Below are positions 1 through 10,461 of a stretch of 10,461 nucleotides of DNA, one piece after another. Positions within the stretch are counted from its first letter, which is position 1. Every line of letters starts with the position of its first letter. Where the stretch lies: IMG/VR virus record IMGVR_UViG_2526164651_000009. One strand, 5' to 3'. The stretch is from a virus (lineage: Duplodnaviria > Heunggongvirae > Uroviricota > Caudoviricetes). The notes under the pieces were generated by a model. That model saw only the letters and a program-made list of their open reading frames with translations. It did not search any database and had not been told where the DNA came from. The translations under genes and the position numbers were made by a program.

Positions 1-453
1 TTAGCAAAAATTAGCATCCTCCCCACCAGCCACCCGGTATACCTCTGATAAATCACGAACATTTTTCATGTCTGCTTTCCCGGACGTTTCCATCAGTGCG
101 TTAATATCATCCCCCGTATAGCGTGATTGCGCGACGATACCAGCCAGAGAGATAACCATAGCCCGGCATACCTGGTCTATCAGACGTAACCTGGTGTCAT
201 CATTCGAGAGGGTGTAAGACTTAACCTCAGCCACATTCCGTGGATAGTTGGCGTGCCATACCGCGACAGCTCCACATTCATCAACATCGCCGCTAAGGTA
301 GGTTTTTGCCACTCGGTTATTACCCGATAACGCAATTTCTACCTCCTGTATGCCGAAAAACCATGCGGCTATCGCATGACCTGCTTCATGTATTGCAAGA
401 TGTCTGGGCCAGCGATAGCTGCCGAACTCAATAATGATGGGGTGCGTACTCAT
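1..453 (-). CDS. Small putative zinc metallopeptidase-like protein (HEAGH motif), about 150 aa; function unknown
   Basis: ORF 1..531 on the minus strand with TAA at 1-3. Preferred start is the ATG at 453-451, preceded by GAGAGGGAAG and lying 10 nt downstream of the ssb stop; the track start at 531 would overlap ssb by 68 nt. The protein contains HEAGHAIAAWFFG, an HExxH zincin-type motif resembling the FtsH/M41 signature. Family assignment is by motif only. Confidence 0.5.
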   Translation of the reverse strand: MSTHPIIIEFGSYRWPRHLAIHEAGHAIAAWFFGIQEVEIALSGNNRVAKTYLSGDVDECGAVAVWHANYPRNVAEVKSYTLSNDDTRLRLIDQVCRAMVISLAGIVAQSRYTGDDINALMETSGKADMKNVRDLSEVYRVAGGEDANFC

Positions 454-463
454 ATCTTCCCTC

Positions 464-898
464 TCAGAATGGCGTTTCATCGTCGAATGGTGGGCGTTGG
501 TCGTATTCATCACGGGATGGCTGCTGCGCACGTCTCAGCGCGTCCGTTGCCTGTCCCTGCTGTCCTGCCTTCCCGCCGGGGCGTACCGTTCTGGCGCTGA
601 TCACACTGTCTGCAATCACCTGATACCCGGTCTGTATGCCACCGTCCTGCCCTGTCCACTGGTTAACCTGCATATTGCCCGCCACGCTAACAAGGTCGCC
701 TTTCTGGTGCTTCGCCAGCGCATCGGCCTGCTTCCCAAAAGCAATAACGCCCAGCCAGAAGGTTGACTCTCCCGCCTCTGCCGCATTACAGGGGAGCGAC
801 ACCGCCAGCCGCGCCATAGCCATGTTGTTACCGTTCGTTGTGGTGCGGGTCTGGGGATCTGCCACCAGCCGCCCGTATGCTGAAATTTGTGCTGTCAT
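464..898 (-). CDS. ssb: Single-stranded DNA-binding protein (SSB), 144 aa
   Basis: ATG at 898-896 preceded by GAGGGG about 6 nt upstream. OB-fold-like N-terminal region (FWLGVIAFGKQADALAKHQKGDLVSVAGNMQVNQWTGQDGG), a Gly/Gln-rich linker and the acidic C-terminal tail PPFDDETPF, which matches the conserved SSB tail (DDDIPF in E. coli SSB). Confidence 0.85.
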   Translation of the reverse strand: MTAQISAYGRLVADPQTRTTTNGNNMAMARLAVSLPCNAAEAGESTFWLGVIAFGKQADALAKHQKGDLVSVAGNMQVNQWTGQDGGIQTGYQVIADSVISARTVRPGGKAGQQGQATDALRRAQQPSRDEYDQRPPFDDETPF

Positions 899-986
899 TT
901 TCCCCTCACTGGATTATTAGTTTTGCTAATGACGATTTCTTAATGTGGGACACCTGCCGATTTTTTTTCATAGTAAGCAAAAATAG

Positions 987-1246
987 TGTTGTCTCTGTTG
1001 TCTTTGTTGTCTCACGGCTCTACAGGCCGCGCCACGTCTGGGTTTTGCTGAGACAACATTTGCAATTTCGTGTTGTCTCACCCGGCATAAATGTTGTCTC
1101 ACTGCCTGCCAGACTAAAAACACACTTTCGCCCTGTTGTCTCAAAATGGCTAAATGTTGTCTCGGTGTTGTCTCAGAAATTAAAATAAAATCCTTATAAA
1201 TCAATCTCAATTACAAATTGAGACAACAAAGACAACCGAGACAACA
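987..1246. repeat. Iteron array, probable replication origin: about 12 copies of the 9-mer TGTTGTCTC in both orientations plus an AT-rich tract
   Basis: Direct copies at 987-995, 996-1004 (TGTTGTCTT variant), 1005-1013, 1071-1079, 1092-1100, 1134-1142, 1155-1163 and 1166-1174. Inverted copies (GAGACAACA) at 1050-1058, 1220-1228 and 1238-1246, with a degenerate one at 1229-1237. Several direct copies are spaced 21 or 42 bp apart. An AT-rich tract lies at about 1175-1219. The array sits immediately downstream of the primase-helicase gene. Confidence 0.8.
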
Positions 1247-1271
1247 CTAAAACTACGCATGTGAAGAAATA

Positions 1272-4031
1272 TTATTTTTCTGGCTGGCTGCTTTCCTCCG
1301 CCATGAAATTGAGTACATAGACGCGAATCTGTCGCCCATCCTCCCTTACTCGCCCCTGATAGCCTCGCCCGCTCGTTGGTGGTGTAAGCATTCCTGCATT
1401 CTTTAGAACTTCGGCAAACTGTTTGGTATTGAAGCCCTTTGCAATCTCCTGCTCAAACGCTGCCGGGAAGGTGTAGAAAATTATCGGGTCGCCGTCGTGG
1501 TTCCCCTTCTTCCTGTACCCGGCTAAATCACGGATGGGTAAATCGCGCGGGTCATAACCCAGCGGCGCGAATCGACTCAGCCCATAGGCATTCAAAAACG
1601 CCTCCGTCTGCTCAATAATCTGCTGGTGCTCTTTGTTCCCCGTGCCGAACTCACGCAACCACGCATTGTAGCTGTGCTGTATCGCATCACGGCACGTTTG
1701 ATCATCCCAGCCAGTAACCACGCCACCCAGCAGTAAAGCAGCCTCCAGAATGGCGAACCTTGCCCCTACACGGTGAACCTGTTCCCCATAGTCGGCAGGA
1801 ATAAGACTGCGCCAGCGAGCTTCACAGTCACGAACGGTATCAATGGCCTGCTGCTGGTGGCCTGCAAGCCATCTGATCCACTCCCGCCCGGCAGCGCCGT
1901 GATTGCTCTGCCACGCGGATTTTAATGCGTCTGCATGGTCTTTCCCTGTCTGGTGCTCATGAAAGCGCACCGCCTTACTTAACGGGATATTCAGCAGGCG
2001 CACCAGTTGCCCCGCTTTTGTCTTGCGTCCTGCGGTGGCAATGAACGTTTCTAAATCCATTTCCCCGGTGCTGATTGCCACGGTACGCCAGCGTTTTAGA
2101 TCCCGGTTTCCGCCTTCTTTCGCGCCCTGCAATTTCCCCACGCCGTTAAACAGGGCATAGGCAGACTGAGAAACGCTTATCGGGTCTGCGCCCTGTCCGA
2201 CTTCATCCAGCGGCATCAGTCCGTCATTGTGGGCGGCGGCCTCGTTTATCAGCCCCAGCGCCGTCCCGTACCACGTCAGGCGCAAGGCATCAGGGTTCCC
2301 GTATAGACTGCTAGCCACGTTCTGCGTGGTTGTTTTCCCGGCGCTCGATTGCTCATAAAAATGAATCCCGAATCCGTCACGCTCTGCCACCCCGATTAAT
2401 GGCGCTGCCAGTGCTGCGGCAATGCCTGTCATCATCGCGTAGTTGCCGTATGCCAGCCGCGCGACACTGTTGCGCCAGCTTTCCGGCGTTCCTGCTACGG
2501 TATACCCGGCAGCGGCTGAACTGCGCCCGCTGAACAAAACAGGCCGCTCAGGTGTGCCGATGATTTCCCCGTCCGGCATGATGTATGCCCCGCACTGCCA
2601 GCCTGTAGCATGAGCAACGCGCCACAATTCACGCGAGCCGCTCCGCTGTAGCCAGTCGGCAAGGATCGCCCGTAAACTGCTTTTGGTCGTGACGTTAACC
2701 CCACCAGCTTTCAGGGTGCGCCAGCCTTCACGCTCGCCAATATCAGCCAGCGGGATAGCCGCTGTTGTCGGTATGCCTGCACCGAATGCCAGCCATGAGA
2801 TAATAAGATACTGATCTTTGTCGTCGCGTCCCGTGCCGATAACCTCCAACGGGGAACATAACCAGCTTTCAGCGTTGACGATCTCCCCGCTTTCCTTGTC
2901 CACCTTCGGCGTTACCCAGAAAACGCCATCTTTGCGGCTCTCAATGTGGGGTTTTAGTGGATCTTTCTCTGGATGGTCAGTTTTACCGCCCTCAATGGCT
3001 TGCAATCGCGGTTTCACGGCTTCCCCTTGAATCTGGTACATCGAATCGTTAAACGCAGCCGTAGCGACTTCCAGCCCGTTTTGCTGGCGGTAGTCGTCCC
3101 AGTCGGCTTTGTAGTCTGTCGGCGGCAGCGCCACCCAGCCAGCCACGGATAAGGCGGCTTTCTCTGCGGCATCTTTGCCCGTGTTCGCCTGGTCGTCCTG
3201 CTGGTGGTCGTTATCTGCGGCAATGATAATTTGCGACTGCGGGTGTTTCCGGCGCATTACTCCGGCAACGTGGATCAGGTTCCCGGCGTCAATTGCCGCC
3301 ACTGTAAGCGCGTCCGGGCGCATCAGGTGGACTGATAAAGTGGTTGCCAGCCCCTCGGCAATAATCACCGCCTGCGGCTGTTCCGGTGCGTTAACGGCGT
3401 GATATGCCCCGCGCTTTGCTGAACCTGTCAGGAGTCGCTTCTCTCCCTGCGGTGTAATGGTTTGCGCTGCTGCCACTGCGCCGGATTCGTCCACCAGCTC
3501 CAGCAATAACGAACCATCCGGCATTACCGGATATTTAAACCCGGTCAGCCCTTTTGATTGCAGGTAATCAGATTCTCCCTGTGTGGCACTCTGGCGCATT
3601 CCGGCATACAGACGGGCAAACGTAGCCCTTCGCTGCTCTGCATCCTCTGCTGCCTGTTTCTGGCGCTCCTGCTCACGCTGCTGGCGGTCAGCTTCCAGTT
3701 GCTCTCTTCTATGGCTCGCTGCCACCGGGTCGGTTTCCGCTGCCCGGTAATCAATACCCAGCACGTCAGCGGCAAGCTGTGCCGCCTCCGTAGTGTCGCA
3801 GTTGTTAACCCGCTTGATTAAATCCAGCCCGTCACCAGCGCCACACTGGTTGCAGATAAAGCTACCGCGCCCGTTGTCGTCGAATCTGAAACGGTCTTTT
3901 CCACCACATGCAGGGCATGGAGAATGGCGGCGCGATGAATCAGGCACGTCGATAGACAATCCAGCCAGCACATAAGGCCAGCGCCCGGCGGCGGCACTGG
4001 TCACTTCGCGGATAAGGTCGATATTACGCAT
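1272..4031 (-). CDS. Primase-helicase replication protein (N-terminal zinc ribbon, TOPRIM domain, C-terminal P-loop NTPase), 919 aa
   Basis: ATG at 4031-4029 with AGGGGG about 6 nt upstream. Zinc-ribbon motif CPACGG...FICNQCG near the N-terminus; TOPRIM-like IIAEG and IIIAADNDHQQDD (DxD); Walker A-like EQSSAGKTT and Walker B-like LMPLDEVG in the C-terminal half. The start overlaps the stop of the upstream gene in the 8-nt sequence ATGCGTAA. Confidence 0.85.
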   Translation of the reverse strand: MRNIDLIREVTSAAAGRWPYVLAGLSIDVPDSSRRHSPCPACGGKDRFRFDDNGRGSFICNQCGAGDGLDLIKRVNNCDTTEAAQLAADVLGIDYRAAETDPVAASHRREQLEADRQQREQERQKQAAEDAEQRRATFARLYAGMRQSATQGESDYLQSKGLTGFKYPVMPDGSLLLELVDESGAVAAAQTITPQGEKRLLTGSAKRGAYHAVNAPEQPQAVIIAEGLATTLSVHLMRPDALTVAAIDAGNLIHVAGVMRRKHPQSQIIIAADNDHQQDDQANTGKDAAEKAALSVAGWVALPPTDYKADWDDYRQQNGLEVATAAFNDSMYQIQGEAVKPRLQAIEGGKTDHPEKDPLKPHIESRKDGVFWVTPKVDKESGEIVNAESWLCSPLEVIGTGRDDKDQYLIISWLAFGAGIPTTAAIPLADIGEREGWRTLKAGGVNVTTKSSLRAILADWLQRSGSRELWRVAHATGWQCGAYIMPDGEIIGTPERPVLFSGRSSAAAGYTVAGTPESWRNSVARLAYGNYAMMTGIAAALAAPLIGVAERDGFGIHFYEQSSAGKTTTQNVASSLYGNPDALRLTWYGTALGLINEAAAHNDGLMPLDEVGQGADPISVSQSAYALFNGVGKLQGAKEGGNRDLKRWRTVAISTGEMDLETFIATAGRKTKAGQLVRLLNIPLSKAVRFHEHQTGKDHADALKSAWQSNHGAAGREWIRWLAGHQQQAIDTVRDCEARWRSLIPADYGEQVHRVGARFAILEAALLLGGVVTGWDDQTCRDAIQHSYNAWLREFGTGNKEHQQIIEQTEAFLNAYGLSRFAPLGYDPRDLPIRDLAGYRKKGNHDGDPIIFYTFPAAFEQEIAKGFNTKQFAEVLKNAGMLTPPTSGRGYQGRVREDGRQIRVYVLNFMAEESSQPEK

Positions 4032-5572: not shown

Positions 5573-5748
5573 GCCGCCACCTCACGAACGCGGGTAATCT
5601 GGATGTGGGAAAGGCGTTCATTTCTGGCCTGATTTAGCGCCTCAGCTTTGGCGCTGATCGCGCTGCGGGCGTCAACGATATAAACGAACTCGACTAATTC
5701 GCCGCTCTGGGCGGTGGCGCATCCTGCAACACGGAAGTAATTAAGCAT
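5569..5748 (-). CDS. Hypothetical small protein, 59 aa
   Basis: Preferred start is the ATG at 5748-5746 with AGGGGG about 6 nt upstream; the track start at 5778 is a TTG and would overlap the Icd-like gene by 38 nt. The start overlaps the Icd-like stop in ATGCTTAA. Confidence 0.5.
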   Translation of the reverse strand: MLNYFRVAGCATAQSGELVEFVYIVDARSAISAKAEALNQARNERLSHIQITRVREVAA

Positions 5749-5932
5749 GTGCGCCCCCTGTGCGAATACGTCCGGCAAAAAAGCAAACGTGATCCCGCGC
5801 CAGAATGCGGCGGGCTTCCTGCTCAGTCTCTGCGGCGATATGGTGAATTTTGGCGGTAATTGTCGGCATATCGCGGCGAACTGCTGCGATAATCCAGATA
5901 AATTGCGGTTTTTGGGTAGGGGTAGTAGCCAT
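5741..5932 (-). CDS. Icd-like small protein (host cell-division inhibitor Icd family, tentative), 63 aa
   Basis: C-terminal 63 codons of track ORF 5741..6493. ATG at 5932-5930 is preceded by a strong SD, AAGGAGG, 8 nt upstream; the longer ORF has no such signal and contains a terminator-like hairpin. The family name is from recalled resemblance to Icd-like proteins of P4-like prophages, not from a search. Confidence 0.6.
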   Translation of the reverse strand: MATTPTQKPQFIWIIAAVRRDMPTITAKIHHIAAETEQEARRILARDHVCFFAGRIRTGGAHA

Positions 5933-5940
5933 TATGGCAG

Positions 5941-6035
5941 CCTCCTTTGTGTTTAAGGAGTCACCGCCTGACGTCTCAATGTCATGATTGGCGGTGACGT
6001 CAGCGGGGTTGAGACTACCGGACACAAAGGAAACC
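5941..6035 (-). ncRNA. Candidate C4-type antisense RNA or structured regulatory leader upstream of the Icd-like gene
   Basis: A perfect 10-nt inverted repeat: 6022-6031 (ACACAAAGGA on plus) is the reverse complement of 5943-5952 (TCCTTTGTGT), and the latter covers most of the SD of the Icd-like gene. Between them is a 9-bp stem (5960-5968 GTCACCGCC with 5990-5998 GGCGGTGAC). A local 6-bp hairpin (5942-5947 with 5955-5960) also includes the SD. Exact RNA ends cannot be determined from sequence. Confidence 0.3.
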
Positions 6036-6121
6036 GGCCTATCCGAAGATAGCCCCACTGACGCCACCATAGATACAGTACGGGCAAGGCCGCTGATTTG
6101 ATGTGCGTGGTGATCGGACAC

Positions 6122-6144
6122 AAAAAAAGACGCTTTCGGCGTCT
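6122..6144 (-). terminator. Candidate rho-independent terminator for the upstream alpA-side operon
   Basis: On the minus strand: stem AGACGC, loop CGAAA, stem GCGUCU, followed by six U (plus-strand A-run at 6122-6127). The stem is short (6 bp) but GC-rich. Confidence 0.35.
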
Positions 6145-6282
6145 GTGTCGCCCTTAGTGTGTTCGGGGTCTCAATCCCGGTTGCTGATTTTGCAGCAACG
6201 CTTGGACTATAACAGCTTTTCTCTGCTAGGTGGTCATACCAGATAAAACCGTAACCCTTTAAGAGTTTTCCCTGTGCACGGC

Positions 6283-6435
6283 TCACCATCTTTTTGTTGA
6301 GGGTAAGCGCCTCGCGTACTGGTAACGGAACTCCGGGCGCTGCGGTATCAATATCAGGTTTTGTAAGGTTGCAGATGTCAACTTTTGACAACATGCCAGC
6401 CAGATTAAAGGCTTCTTTCTGGGCGGCAGGTTCAT
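6283..6435 (-). CDS. Possible small basic ORF, 50 aa (MNLPPRKKPLIWLACCQK...), uncertain
   Basis: ATG at 6435-6433 overlaps the TGA of the upstream DUF4222-like gene (ATGA coupling); TGA at 6285-6283. No independent SD and the composition is unusual. Not in the supplied track because it is under 60 aa. Confidence 0.15.
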   Translation of the reverse strand: MNLPPRKKPLIWLACCQKLTSATLQNLILIPQRPEFRYQYARRLPSTKRW

Positions 6436-6614
6436 TCAGTATCACGGCGCACCTCCACGAACTCATTAACGAATCTCTCCAAAGGCTGAACACATGGCGA
6501 CTGATAGCCCTCGCGGTAAAAGGTCACTCGGTTATGCTCGACGCGCTGTACGGTCACTACAGCCCCGTGACTGTCCTTGTAACGGCTTCCCGGCATCGGA
6601 TTATGGTTACGCAT
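6432..6614 (-). CDS. Small protein, DUF4222-like (tentative), 60 aa
   Basis: ATG at 6614-6612 with GGAGG about 7 nt upstream. The start overlaps the upstream stop in ATGCGTAA. The sequence pattern (GAVVTVQRV...VTFYREGYQSPCVQPLERF) resembles small DUF4222 proteins of P4-like prophages, from recall only. Confidence 0.55.
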   Translation of the reverse strand: MRNHNPMPGSRYKDSHGAVVTVQRVEHNRVTFYREGYQSPCVQPLERFVNEFVEVRRDTE

Positions 6615-7440
6615 GGTTTACCTCCAGACGCTTAGCGAGCCAGCGTTGCGACAGGCGGGTGAGTTCTCCTTTGCGCTGCTCATATTCCATGCCCATATCA
6701 ATTAACGTGATATTGGTGCTTTCGAGATAGGCGAGGTGTTCAAGCTGTGCTGCGTTCATGCTGTCCCGTGGTTCGCCAGTAATGCCATTTGCCTGCGCCC
6801 ACTGCTTCGCCGTCATGCCACCCAGCACGATACGGGCGATCATGTTGCTCTCGTTGCTGTAGTGGCGCTGCTGCGTCGTTTTACCCAGCTCGGCACGGGC
6901 CATATTCAGCGCATCGCACATTGGCTTAAAATTGTTTGCGGCACTGATACGGGCTTTTAGCTGGCGACGATAGCGGGCGGCGATTTCAGGCACGCTACGC
7001 TGTAATTCTTCCTCGCACTGGATGAAATAACGGCGGATAGCGCGGCCCTGTTCGGTGCGTTCGACCATCGCCAGTTCTTTCGCCATTCCGACACTTAACA
7101 GATAGTCTTTGCCGGGTCTGCCAGACTGTTTAATCTTGCTGTAAGCCACGCCATTCGGGCTTTTCCCCAGATTTGGGGAAATTGTTTTATGGACTGAGTA
7201 ATCGTGCCCAATGGTGAAGTCATATTCAGAGATGCGATCAGTGATCCATGTAGAGAAGTCTTTTCCCACGCCCAACGCTTTGTGTAACGCTTTGGCGCTA
7301 ACAATATTGGTTTCACGCCCACCGATATGACCAGGAATAACCGGGACAATTGTGGCAAATTCATTACCGTTAATTGTGCCCTGATAGGCGTTCAGATGAG
7401 GGGCGGCCTCAGAAATTAATCTGCTTTTTTCGATGTTCAT
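6607..7440 (-). CDS. Phage antirepressor-like regulatory protein (AntA-type N-terminal domain, tentative), 277 aa
   Basis: ATG at 7440-7438 with GGAG about 8 nt upstream. N-terminal region SAKALHKALGVGKDFSTWITDRI resembles the AntA/ORF6N-type antirepressor signature (F-S/N-D/T-W-I..RI). The C-terminal half is unassigned. Confidence 0.5.
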   Translation of the reverse strand: MNIEKSRLISEAAPHLNAYQGTINGNEFATIVPVIPGHIGGRETNIVSAKALHKALGVGKDFSTWITDRISEYDFTIGHDYSVHKTISPNLGKSPNGVAYSKIKQSGRPGKDYLLSVGMAKELAMVERTEQGRAIRRYFIQCEEELQRSVPEIAARYRRQLKARISAANNFKPMCDALNMARAELGKTTQQRHYSNESNMIARIVLGGMTAKQWAQANGITGEPRDSMNAAQLEHLAYLESTNITLIDMGMEYEQRKGELTRLSQRWLAKRLEVNHA

Positions 7441-7452
7441 TTTCAGTCTCCG

Positions 7453-7884
7453 TTAGGCGGCGGTGAGATTGTCCGGGTATAGATTGAGAATGTCGGCAAT
7501 TTCAGGCTGAGAAAGTCCCTGATAGCCGCCAGCGTCGGCGTTATGGTTCACAAGCCGAATAACTTTTAGAACGTCACCGCGCCCGGTAAAGCGATAGCGT
7601 AAATGTGACCCTATCCCGTCGGGGTTCTTTTCGTCTATACGCTCAAGCTGAATATCAAGCCTGCGCTCTAACTCGCTGGCGTAGTTCCTTCCAGACGAAA
7701 GGCGGCAATAACGCAGAATATCGTTTTCTGTCCATCCCTCTATACCAGTACGCAGCATATAGACGCGGGCGCGGTGTTTCTTTGGGGTACGCCTAGGTAC
7801 TTGTACCGGGCTGGTGGTCGGCGTAATATCAGACGTGCGAATATCTGAGTTAGCCGCCTGTAATGGGCGGTTTTTCTTTTTCAT
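7453..7884 (-). CDS. Hypothetical basic protein, 143 aa
   Basis: ATG at 7884-7882 overlaps the alpA stop by 1 nt (TGATG); GGTGG lies upstream. The track start at 7887 is a TTG. Basic, proline/threonine-rich N-terminus; no recognised domain. Confidence 0.6.
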   Translation of the reverse strand: MKKKNRPLQAANSDIRTSDITPTTSPVQVPRRTPKKHRARVYMLRTGIEGWTENDILRYCRLSSGRNYASELERRLDIQLERIDEKNPDGIGSHLRYRFTGRGDVLKVIRLVNHNADAGGYQGLSQPEIADILNLYPDNLTAA

Positions 7885-8093
7885 CAAGCCACCTTTCCCC
7901 GACGTTCTGCCAGCCAGTTGTTAATCTCTACCGCATCAAAGGCGGTAATCTTCTCGCCCAGCTTTACCGGGCGCGGCAGTCGCTTATCTCGAACCCAACG
8001 ATCAATGGTTGCTACATGGACGCCCAGCGCTTGAGCCAGGCGGAAGCGGCGAATATAGCCGCTTGTGGGAAGTGGTGATTGGTGTTCTGTCAT
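7884..8093 (-). CDS. alpA: AlpA-family phage transcriptional regulator (helix-turn-helix), 69 aa
   Basis: Preferred start is the ATG at 8093-8091 with AAGGAG about 9 nt upstream; the track start at 8117 has no SD. Motifs RLAQALGVHVATIDRWV...PRPVKLG...EINNWL match the AlpA pattern. It is the first gene after the int-cargo block, as is typical for P4-like and PICI elements. Confidence 0.8.
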   Translation of the reverse strand: MTEHQSPLPTSGYIRRFRLAQALGVHVATIDRWVRDKRLPRPVKLGEKITAFDAVEINNWLAERRGKVA

Positions 8094-8194
8094 ATGTCCC
8101 GTAACTCCTTTCTGCATCGTTACGGGAATACTGAATAAAAAACCAGTGTTTATCTATACAGAATCAAAATATTAAAAATCCGAATAGATTCAGA
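8094..8194 (-). promoter_or_regulatory. AT-rich leader and probable promoter region of the alpA operon, with a hairpin around the alpA SD
   Basis: A 9-bp inverted repeat, 8097-8105 (TCCCGTAAC) with 8119-8127 (GTTACGGGA), has a 13-nt loop containing the SD AAGGAG. Further upstream are AT-rich repeats of AATCTGAA/TTCAGATT (8189-8196 and 8221-8228). No confident -35/-10 hexamers could be assigned by eye. Confidence 0.4.
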
Positions 8195-9046
8195 TTATTG
8201 AAAATCTATCAATTTCAGAAAATCTGAAAACCTCATGTTTTTTATGTGGGGGTTATCTGCGTAGTATTTTTTTAATTCCACTCGACTAAGCACATCTCTC
8301 ACAGACTCTGCAAATGGTTTCACAGTGTCACGGATGTGAGCGCCACCCTTAACCGTTCCGTCAGGTAGTGGCTCAGGGAACAGTAGACGCGCATAAAGCT
8401 CATTGGACACCATAATGCCGTTAATCCTCGCCCATCTTGATATATCAAGATATGGGATTATCCGGTAATGATGGATCTTGGCAATTGTTGACGCCCCGAA
8501 CCTCTTTTTTTCTTTGACGGCACTTTCAGGTATACCGGTCTGAACCCTCCACCTTTTTAGCAATGTTTTAAATCCAGCTATCATTTCGTCATCGTCCATC
8601 AAATCAAGCCCGATATCGACAAATATCCCCGTTTTACCTTCTGACCTTGGATCATCGGTATCATATAGCATCGACTGGTTGTATATATCGCAATTTTCTA
8701 TGTCTGCTCTTGCTTCAATTCTGCCATTATCCGTTATCGTCATACGCCCATCACTCAGGCAGCTGTTAACAAAAGCGCAAATCATCGAAAAAGGTAGAGG
8801 CATAATTCCTCTGTCATCAAAGGATAGACTACCCTCCGGCAAATCCTCATCCCAGAGGGTAACATCCGTTATAAGGGGGAATGGAATAATTGAGAAAACC
8901 TCATCTTTTCGTAACTCAAGACTATCAGAGTGATAACTCATCATGAACATCTCGCTTACCACATGGTTGACACTTAGATCCAACACGTAGTCGTACCTGT
9001 CCAGTGAAAACCATTCCATCACATCGCCGTATTTAGCCCGTTTCAT
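8195..9046 (-). CDS. Hypothetical protein, 283 aa; AT-richer cargo gene between integrase and alpA, function unknown (candidate accessory or defence gene)
   Basis: ATG at 9046-9044 with AAGGTGG about 7 nt upstream; TAA at 8197-8195. The gene looks AT-richer than its neighbours (not computed). No Walker, HExxH or nuclease motif was recognised by eye. Confidence 0.75.
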   Translation of the reverse strand: MKRAKYGDVMEWFSLDRYDYVLDLSVNHVVSEMFMMSYHSDSLELRKDEVFSIIPFPLITDVTLWDEDLPEGSLSFDDRGIMPLPFSMICAFVNSCLSDGRMTITDNGRIEARADIENCDIYNQSMLYDTDDPRSEGKTGIFVDIGLDLMDDDEMIAGFKTLLKRWRVQTGIPESAVKEKKRFGASTIAKIHHYRIIPYLDISRWARINGIMVSNELYARLLFPEPLPDGTVKGGAHIRDTVKPFAESVRDVLSRVELKKYYADNPHIKNMRFSDFLKLIDFQ

Positions 9047-9141
9047 AACGCCACCTTTTACGCTGCGCCTTATTTTGTGATTGAGCCAGGCGGTAAGGCT
9101 TCCCGCTTTTCGCCCCGTCGGGCTAGACTCAATCTATTCAG

Positions 9142-10401
9142 TTAGTTCGCCCTTCTGAGAGGCGTCACGTTGTAATCTTCGCCCTTCTCCAGAGCCACCA
9201 GCAAGCCCGCCCACTGTGTTAACGCAGCCCGTCGCTCGTCAAAGTATTGGTGACGGTTATAAATCCCCTCTACGCCCTTAATGCGATGATTGAGGCATCG
9301 TTCCGCCACTACCGGATCAACGCCCAGCGCTGCTAAATGGGTGCGGGCCGTGCGTCGGAAGTCGTGAATCGTGAAATTAGGCACATCCGGTATTTCGGCG
9401 CGAACCTTAGCCAGTGCTACGGGCAGGGTGCTTTCCTGAATATGGGGGATCATGCGGTTTTGCATCTTTCTGGCTGGCAGTACCCATGCGCTGTTGCATG
9501 AGAACGTTTTAAGCTCTCTCAGCCATTCGACGGCTGGGGAAGGTAGAGGTATATCAATAGGGTCTCCGTTTTTGCTGCGTTCTTCCGGCAAATGCCATAC
9601 CGCACCATCTAAATCAAACTCTTCCCATCGTGCGGCGCATAATTCCATTTTGCGGACGCATAACGCTAACAGTAATTTGAACGTGATTTCGTTCTGGCGA
9701 CTGAATCCCTTAGCCGTGCGCATGGCTTTGAATAGCTGGATTAACTCATCGCGGGTTAACCAGCGGTCACGGGCAACTTCTTTCCCTCCGGCGTCTGCCA
9801 CCTCAAAGGCTGAACAGGGGTTAATCTCTAGCGCGTGCCGTTTGATTCCGTAGTCGAATATGCGGCGCGTCCATCTCAGCACGTCCGTTGCTATGGTCGA
9901 CGCTCCACGGTCAACAATACCTTTCAGCATGTCATCGATATGGCGCGGTTTCACGTCCTCTACCTTCATGCTGCCAATGCAGGGGTTTATATCTTTGTCG
10001 ATACGGCGGCGGAGTATATCGGGGTGCTTCCAGCGCGGGAGGATCTGACGCTCAAAGTATTCAGCGGCAAGCTCTGAAACGCGCATAGCGTTCTTCTCTG
10101 CTTCCATCTTCGCCAGTGCTTCGGTTTTGCGCTTCTGCTTCTCTCCTGCAACGTCATAGCCCAGCGCAACGCGAGCCGATAGCTCTTTGGCTGTCTCTCT
10201 GGCCTTTGATAGTGATAGCTCGCTATACGAACCAATTAGCATGGCGCGGGACTTCCCTGCGAGTTTATAGCGGAATCTCCATGTGGGGGTTTTGTCGGCT
10301 TCACGGTAACGTAGGTATAAACCGTTACCGTCTGCCCGCCCCTCGAATCGCTCTCCGCTCTTAATCCATGCGCGGATCTGCATGTCTGTTAGTTTTGGCA
10401 T
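9142..10401 (-). CDS. int: P4-type tyrosine integrase (site-specific recombinase), about 419 aa
   Basis: Preferred start is the ATG at 10401-10399 (MPKLTDMQIRA..., matching the usual P4-type integrase N-terminus); the ORF remains open to the window edge at 10461. The C-terminal catalytic region carries HDFRRT and the active-site tyrosine context GIYNRHQY. Confidence 0.9.
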   Translation of the reverse strand: MPKLTDMQIRAWIKSGERFEGRADGNGLYLRYREADKTPTWRFRYKLAGKSRAMLIGSYSELSLSKARETAKELSARVALGYDVAGEKQKRKTEALAKMEAEKNAMRVSELAAEYFERQILPRWKHPDILRRRIDKDINPCIGSMKVEDVKPRHIDDMLKGIVDRGASTIATDVLRWTRRIFDYGIKRHALEINPCSAFEVADAGGKEVARDRWLTRDELIQLFKAMRTAKGFSRQNEITFKLLLALCVRKMELCAARWEEFDLDGAVWHLPEERSKNGDPIDIPLPSPAVEWLRELKTFSCNSAWVLPARKMQNRMIPHIQESTLPVALAKVRAEIPDVPNFTIHDFRRTARTHLAALGVDPVVAERCLNHRIKGVEGIYNRHQYFDERRAALTQWAGLLVALEKGEDYNVTPLRRAN

Positions 10402-10461
10402 TTTGCGAATATCCAAACTTTGAATAGGGGGTGTACCCAAAGCAATGTACCCAAACCTCAT

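Follow-up and report, generated by a model that had tools for sequence, protein, structure and literature searches.

A 3'-truncated gene for a stand-alone FtsH-type (M41) peptidase next to the SSB gene of a phage satellite

At one end of the DNA analyzed here, a 10,461-nucleotide stretch assigned to the Caudoviricetes (IMG/VR record IMGVR_UViG_2526164651_000009; hereafter the window), two genes lie side by side on the minus strand: an open reading frame (ORF) of 150 amino acids with a HExxH metallopeptidase motif (positions 1-453), and a gene for a single-stranded DNA-binding protein (SSB) of 144 amino acids (positions 464-898). An initial annotation, made from the letters of the sequence, had singled out this pair and placed it directly beyond an origin of replication, and in these respects it was accurate. 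Both ORFs are present on the minus strand, the SSB call is borne out by Pfam, NCBIfam (TIGR00621), PHROG (phrog_44) and Protein Data Bank (PDB) matches, and origin-like iteron DNA adjoins the SSB gene at positions 899-1271. The ORF of the 150-amino-acid HEAGH protein is likewise real, but the gene is incomplete: its close homologues have about 213 residues, a truncation that had been missed from the sequence alone. We describe this gene as the 3'-truncated copy of a stand-alone FtsH-type (M41) zinc-peptidase gene.

The HEAGH ORF starts with an ATG at position 453 and ends with a stop codon at positions 3-1. A longer, GTG-started reading of 176 amino acids (positions 1-531) was rejected, since the homologues all start with MSTQ or MDTQ at the ATG at position 453; plus-strand ORFs within positions 1-920 (e.g., 434-766 and 636-920) are no more than antisense mirror images of the two genes and lack independent support. 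The zinc-binding and catalytic HEAGH motif spans residues 22-26 (positions 376-390), of which H22, E23, and H26 are invariant, and Asp128 (positions 70-72), the predicted third zinc ligand, is kept in the truncated copy; it is invariant as well and aligns with the corresponding Asp of FtsH. Only 10 nucleotides (positions 454-463; TGA-GAGGGAAGAT-ATG) separate the stop codon of the SSB gene from the start of the peptidase gene, and they include a Shine-Dalgarno-like ribosome-binding site, GAGGGA. The HEAGH ORF opens the variable cargo zone of the element and is co-transcribed with the SSB gene.

The protein encoded in the window corresponds to residues 1-147 of the family and then ends in three foreign codons and a stop (...VAGGEDA-NFC-stop), while its relatives run 66 residues further. 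In Escherichia coli DY612 (locus L001), the SSB and peptidase genes are 97.6% identical to window positions 10-898, and the peptidase encoded there has 213 amino acids; among the copies in complete E. coli genomes, the best match to the window peptidase DNA reaches 99.3% identity. Identity between DY612 and the window reaches down to position 13, and there is no relation below position 10. DY612 carries a separate rearrangement further downstream. A cassette replacement, to which the DY612 comparison had pointed, was rejected in favor of a clean deletion of 1,023 bp, because a locus of the window lineage (L010) and a contig labelled Pseudomonas graminis (L002) align on both sides of the gap: L010 positions 9682-10437 correspond to L002 positions 7682-8437, and L010 positions 10439-11380 to L002 positions 9461-10387. 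In the window, the comparisons with DY612 and L002 put the deletion junction, at which homology to the full-length genes ends, at positions 9-16. The lost DNA comprises the last 205 nucleotides (66 codons) of the peptidase gene, the whole of a gene for a 116-amino-acid protein and about 470 nucleotides of spacer.

Within the family, the lost residues 148-213 are more strongly conserved than residues 1-147 (78.6% versus 70.0% mean pairwise identity), and the segment from residue 155 to residue 187 reaches 88.8%; the invariant A172 and the nearly invariant W165 are both found in the lost part. In the structure model this part forms the helices 149-163, 165-176, 183-193, and 203-211, and its residues can be aligned with the helices at the C-terminal end of the FtsH protease domain, so that the window copy falls short of a complete M41 domain by its C-terminal helical bundle. 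Because the lost segment holds four predicted helices and the most conserved residues, the 150-amino-acid product most likely has no function and is a remnant that a clonal E. coli lineage carries along, an inactivity that we infer from the conservation and position of what was lost. The exact 150-amino-acid protein was found on no fewer than 24 contigs, corresponding to 66 index blocks of the assembly collection; in the two of these loci that were inspected, the element has the same dinD-adjacent site as in complete genomes. Among the complete E. coli genomes that carry the peptidase gene, the short form was found in none (0/28).

The intact family consists of a soluble, stand-alone FtsH-type (MEROPS M41) zinc-peptidase domain without an AAA+ ATPase or a membrane anchor. 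Its close homologues fall into 23 clusters, nearly all of 213 amino acids, one of which bears the UniRef name "Peptidase M41 domain-containing". An exhaustive HMMER search of 1.84 billion representatives returned 68 relatives, mostly single-domain proteins of 190-230 amino acids, and in an alignment of 45 members the residues H22, E23, A24, H26, G105, A108, D128, and A172 are invariant, with W165 nearly so. A profile built from the close homologues reached FtsH in the PDB only at an E-value of about 0.6; significance came when the distant relatives were added, and the resulting family profile matched the FtsH structures 2dhr (E = 4e-12) and 2di4, an isolated protease domain (E = 2.4e-10), as well as YME1 (E = 1.2e-6). 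PDB chain 5iqj gave no match with the sequence profile. In the profile alignment, HEAGH falls on the HEAGH of Thermus thermophilus FtsH and D128 on the Asp of GAENDF, which we take from the crystal-structure literature on FtsH to be the third zinc ligand. As in other M41 peptidases, this Asp stands in a G-x-x-D sequence about 75-105 residues downstream of the HExxH motif. The Pfam family Peptidase_M41 matches 16 of the 45 members at E <= 0.01, the best of them at E = 1e-13.

The three-dimensional fold agrees with this assignment. An AlphaFold2 (AF2) model of the full-length relative P0001, computed with a deep alignment, reached a pLDDT of 93.7 and a pTM of 0.89, and Foldseek placed it in the M41 fold with a probability of 1.0, its structural neighbours being exclusively M41 proteins; stand-alone M41 proteins of 214-230 amino acids were found by Foldseek in phages, too. 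The initial annotation had offered the lack of a zincin fold as grounds for abandoning its proposal, and the HExxH motif does sit in such a fold in the full-length family according to the profile, AF2, and Foldseek. Like the protease domain of FtsH, AFG3L2, and YME1 (M41; PF01434), the family has an active-site helix that bears HEAGH; a small beta-sheet comes next, and the long LAG..AE helix, the Asp of the G-x-x-D sequence, and the aligned C-terminal helices are shared as well. It differs from FtsH in that the whole protein has about 213 amino acids and lacks the AAA+ module, the transmembrane segments, and the periplasmic domain; identity is only 14-21%, and the family member described here is carried on a phage satellite and, in the window copy, is also devoid of the C-terminal helices. 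A search for an AAA+ ATPase in the family of about 213 residues gave no hit, and the matches to FtsH were limited to its protease domain. Size, single-domain architecture, and residence on a mobile element are shared with UniProt entry A0A6J5RJ76 from an uncultured Caudovirales phage (214 amino acids) and with the Dickeya homologue P0010, the cluster that UniRef names after M41; both names are automatic only.

To judge by their M41 fold and invariant H-E-H-D residues, the intact members are probably active ATP-independent peptidases or formers of FtsH-like rings. As an accessory, the gene is rare: 28 of the 5,426 complete E. coli genomes have it, and in most sister elements PerC follows directly after the SSB gene. 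Searches with tblastn found no match to the 150-amino-acid query in 50,697 phage records and none to the 213-amino-acid query in 72,556 plasmid records. Neither form of the protein, truncated or full-length, nor any of the neighbouring ORFs had a significant match in PADLOC-DB 2.0, and scans of the 150-amino-acid protein against NCBIfam, PHROGs, and PADLOC returned nothing usable. A search of the literature library retrieved no study of stand-alone M41 proteins or of M41 proteins in defence systems, and nothing relevant on 5iqj.

The gene at positions 464-898 has the features of a bona fide bacterial-type SSB. Its product matches the Pfam SSB family (PF00436) with 60.7 bits against a cut-off of 26 (E = 1.6e-16), TIGR00621 with 56.1 bits against a cut-off of 53.95, and phrog_44 at E = 1.4e-34, and 25 solved SSB structures were matched in the PDB (best E = 5.6e-11). 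An OB fold (residues 4-99) is followed by a disordered linker rich in Gly, Gln, and Pro and by the acidic tip DDETPF, encoded at positions 467-484; the C-terminus (...QRPPFDDETPF) aligns with the tail of PDB entry 7r4w. The protein shares with E. coli Ssb the OB fold, the disordered linker, and the acidic tip ending in PF. In a BLASTP alignment with the E. coli sequence, three of the four aromatic positions that stack on single-stranded DNA (ssDNA) have conserved counterparts (W54, F60, and W88); the fourth, W40, falls at a gap and has no conserved counterpart. Further differences from E. coli Ssb are an identity of 32% over 87 aligned residues of the OB domain, a shorter linker (144 amino acids in total), and a tip that reads DDETPF where E. 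coli has DDDIPF.

An SSB beside the origin had been thought unusual for such a satellite and suggestive of a plasmid leading region; both suggestions have to be given up. At the DNA level, 1,766 of the 5,426 complete E. coli genomes contain relatives of the SSB gene; of the 2,292 places concerned, almost all are chromosomal. The protein family comprises 883 clusters at 90% identity (E <= 1e-10) across the Enterobacterales. In each related element examined, be it from E. coli, Klebsiella, or Dickeya or on the contig labelled P. graminis, it is likewise located downstream of the primase gene, in the position after primase and origin. "Primase, SSB and DUF5906" are assigned by Mageeney et al. to the replication category of the Gram-negative phage-inducible chromosomal islands (PICIs), and these genes colocalize with mapped origins (PMC10111431); the window SSB resembles the SSBs of that module in its position beside primase and origin. 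It is a core gene of the satellite replication module and, as such, already known and routine equipment of PICI-type satellites.

The origin-like region next to the SSB gene is a non-coding stretch of 373 nucleotides (positions 899-1271) located between the primase gene (positions 1272-4031) and the SSB gene, with GTTGTCTC iterons arranged around an AT-rich core. All 10 exact copies of GTTGTCTC in the window fall within positions 988-1245, where 0.32 would be expected by chance, and they are framed by inverted arms of 31 nucleotides (positions 984-1014 and 1219-1249); in the core the GC content drops to 0.40-0.41. Promoter and terminator scans of positions 1-1400 gave hits no more frequent than chance. 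By analogy with what is known of SSBs and of PICI- and P4-type replication, we envisage that upon induction the primase-helicase would open the iteron origin, the satellite SSB would coat the exposed single strands, and its DDETPF tip would recruit replisome partners of the host. The segment between primase and SSB genes differs in the sister elements despite near-identical SSB and peptidase genes (window positions 899-1271 versus L001 positions 14886-15500); L001 has an ORF of 100 amino acids that overlaps the SSB start at the place of the iteron array of the window, and the primase allele of the sister elements is a different one, with about 814 amino acids versus 919 in the window. Origin and initiator appear to be swapped as one unit, independently of the SSB gene.

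The order SSB-peptidase is kept throughout the close subfamily (E. coli, Klebsiella, Dickeya, and the contig labelled P. graminis) and extends to a homologue with 31% identity (L012), where the genes for SSB, PerC, and the peptidase follow one another. Other genes intervene between SSB and peptidase genes in Dickeya and in L012. The peptidase gene is absent from about 98% of the E. coli genomes with an SSB of the window type, and of two remote family members, one resides in an island beside an integrase gene and the other in a phage-like group of small ORFs, with no SSB gene nearby in either case. The simplest reading of the synteny is positional: the core genes end with the SSB gene, and the variable cargo zone begins with the peptidase gene.

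This distribution bears directly on the suggestion, made in the initial annotation, that SSB and HExxH protein together handle ssDNA during replication or transfer. One may think here of an ArdC-like anti-restriction or an anti-SOS factor or of a protease acting on SSB-bound or SSB-tail partners. The spacing of 10 nucleotides, the common orientation, and an SSB gene immediately or closely upstream, even at 31% identity, would fit such a module, and the synteny in the close subfamily thus stands. The functional part of the suggestion fared less well, as most elements by far have the SSB but no peptidase, other genes can separate the two, remote members live in islands without a nearby SSB gene, no PADLOC, PHROG, or NCBIfam match and no plasmid homologue was recovered for the supposed anti-restriction or anti-SOS factor, and the last-core/first-cargo positions explain the synteny more simply; a joint ssDNA-handling module is very unlikely. 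More improbable still, to the point of being hardly credible, is the leading idea of the initial annotation, a regulatory protease with ImmA/IrrE-like logic that would cleave a repressor and thereby induce the element. The HEAGH protein resembles the ImmA/IrrE (M78) proteins in being small, in having a HExxH motif, and in its location on a mobile element. The zincin family and the fold are different ones, however, given that the structural neighbours are exclusively M41, and no match to Peptidase_M78/ImmA (PF06114) was obtained in Pfam at E <= 0.1. There is also no adjacent helix-turn-helix/XRE partner repressor; the gene upstream encodes the SSB, and the gene downstream in relatives encodes the 116-amino-acid protein, PerC, or a product without a recognized domain. 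The immunity signature of the element is RNA-based and P4-like (C4, isrK, and the AntA antirepressor), and a gene that is missing from about 98% of the E. coli genomes in which related SSB-bearing elements occur cannot serve these elements as an induction switch.

A different question is whether the deletion created a functional short variant, that is, a miniature zincin with its own fold and peptidase activity or a dominant-negative or regulatory fragment. We consider this unlikely. The product retains HEAGH and D128, the ORF has kept its ribosome-binding site and its position in the operon, and the identical protein recurs on many contigs. Against this stand the loss of the most conserved third of the family, including A172, W165, and four helices that are part of the protease domain of FtsH, the absence of the short form from all 28 gene-carrying complete E. 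coli genomes, and a DNA difference of only about 0.7% from full-length alleles; the short allele is therefore recent, and its persistence is no evidence of selection. For the intact family, a further role may be conceived: as an ATPase-less FtsH protease ring, or as a subunit that co-assembles with host FtsH, it might serve satellites and phages to re-program FtsH-dependent proteolysis, with the window copy a recently inactivated or possibly a dominant-negative allele. Isolated FtsH protease domains form hexamers, and FtsH controls lambda CII; candidate targets would be lysis-lysogeny regulators of a helper phage (of the lambda CII/CIII type) or stress factors of the host. This proposal, to which we give only a small chance, draws on the fold, on a metal site that is intact, on the presence of the family on mobile elements, and on what is known of FtsH.

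We thus prefer to read the locus as part of a PICI-type satellite with a core SSB gene and an M41 cargo peptidase gene whose copy in the window is a deletion remnant, and we put the probability of this combined reading at roughly 0.78. Several observations pull in the other direction. Catalytic helix, beta-sheet, and the three predicted zinc ligands are all still present in the truncated product, which may therefore have residual activity; the allele persists, with the 150-amino-acid protein in 66 blocks, for which clonal spread is an equally good explanation. The structure model is that of the full-length relative P0001 rather than of the 150-amino-acid product by itself, and its quality depended on the depth of the alignment, as AF2 with a shallow alignment of 17 close sequences gave a pLDDT of 39.5. 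The window protein scores 13.2 bits against PF01434, below the cut-off of 29.9, and a direct Pfam scan of the 150-amino-acid protein gave sub-threshold matches only (M50B, E = 0.006; M41, E = 0.08). Finally, the presumed peptidase activity of the family is deduced from fold and residues.

The main yield of this analysis is a correction of the annotation: the SSB is a routine one, and the HExxH ORF is a deletion remnant and as such unsuited as a basis for experiments. The pairing of the two genes is ordinary overall, and the peptidase is an ATPase-less variant of a very well known protease family that automatic annotation recognizes. The intact 213-amino-acid family is a modest curiosity and the object worth testing. 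It is found on satellites, islands, and phages across the Enterobacterales and beyond, with every catalytic residue conserved, and if active it would be an ATP-independent relative of the FtsH protease; to our knowledge, FtsH-type proteases are otherwise known only as parts of AAA+ machines. An active family could provide satellites with a tool for manipulating the protein turnover of the host or of a helper phage.

The remainder of the window places the two genes in their context. All genes of the window form a single minus-strand run. According to the window ORFs and Pfam, it comprises an integrase (positions 9142-10461), a DUF6387-type protein (8195-9046), an AlpA-like regulator (7884-8117), an AntA antirepressor (6607-7440), an Icd-like ORF (5741-6493), and the primase-helicase of 919 amino acids with Zn-ribbon, Toprim, and DUF927 domains (1272-4031), in addition to several small ORFs. 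Judged by this gene content, the element is a Gram-negative PICI-type phage satellite: it has int, alpA, a primase-helicase, and an origin, its accessory genes lie downstream of the primase gene, phage structural and lysis genes are absent among the window ORFs and their Pfam matches, and its size is about 10-13 kb. The order of its components is integrase, AlpA, AntA, the Icd-like ORF with the C4 and isrK RNAs, primase-helicase, iteron origin, SSB, and cargo. This agrees with the published layout of E. coli PICIs, in which int, AlpA, antirepressor, Ash, and primase are followed by accessory genes of the PerC type downstream (PMC11773190).

On the minus strand, at positions 5987-6212 and 9067-9133, Rfam matches above the gathering score were found for the C4 antisense RNA (82 bits) and isrK (71 bits), together with c4-a1b1 target sites and the int-alpA RNA. 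A P4-type RNA immunity signature hence lies in or beside the Icd-like ORF, within an element that otherwise looks like a PICI. In all E. coli copies examined (L001, L008, L009, and L010), the element occupies a site flanked by dinD and yicC; for the window-lineage loci L010 and L011 the analysis reached only to the dinD side. No tRNA gene is annotated at the dinD/yicC junction of these copies. The cargo end on the dinD side is variable among the E. coli copies, with deletions and an insertion of ISKox3.

The 116-amino-acid ORF that was deleted in the window lineage is found at positions 13456-13806 of L001 (E. coli DY612) and at positions 8639-8989 of L002, in both cases with 4 nucleotides in common with the end of the full-length peptidase gene, at its stop codon; this overlap suggests translational coupling. 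It is absent after the peptidase copies of Klebsiella and Dickeya, and its only match is a weak one in PHROG (phrog_3443, E = 0.006). Just beyond position 1 of the window, past the deletion junction, L010 has a non-coding stretch of about 370 nucleotides (positions 10454-10823) with dense short repeats (TACGAAAC, GCGCAGT, and GTACGCAA), which could be an operator or an iteron array for a DNA-binding protein. The repeat stretch is followed at L010 positions 10824-11435 by a conserved ORF of 203 amino acids, for which Pfam, PHROG, and PADLOC gave no match; it contains a zinc-ribbon-like CPHC...CRAC motif and has an orthologue of 189 amino acids at L002 positions 9831-10400.
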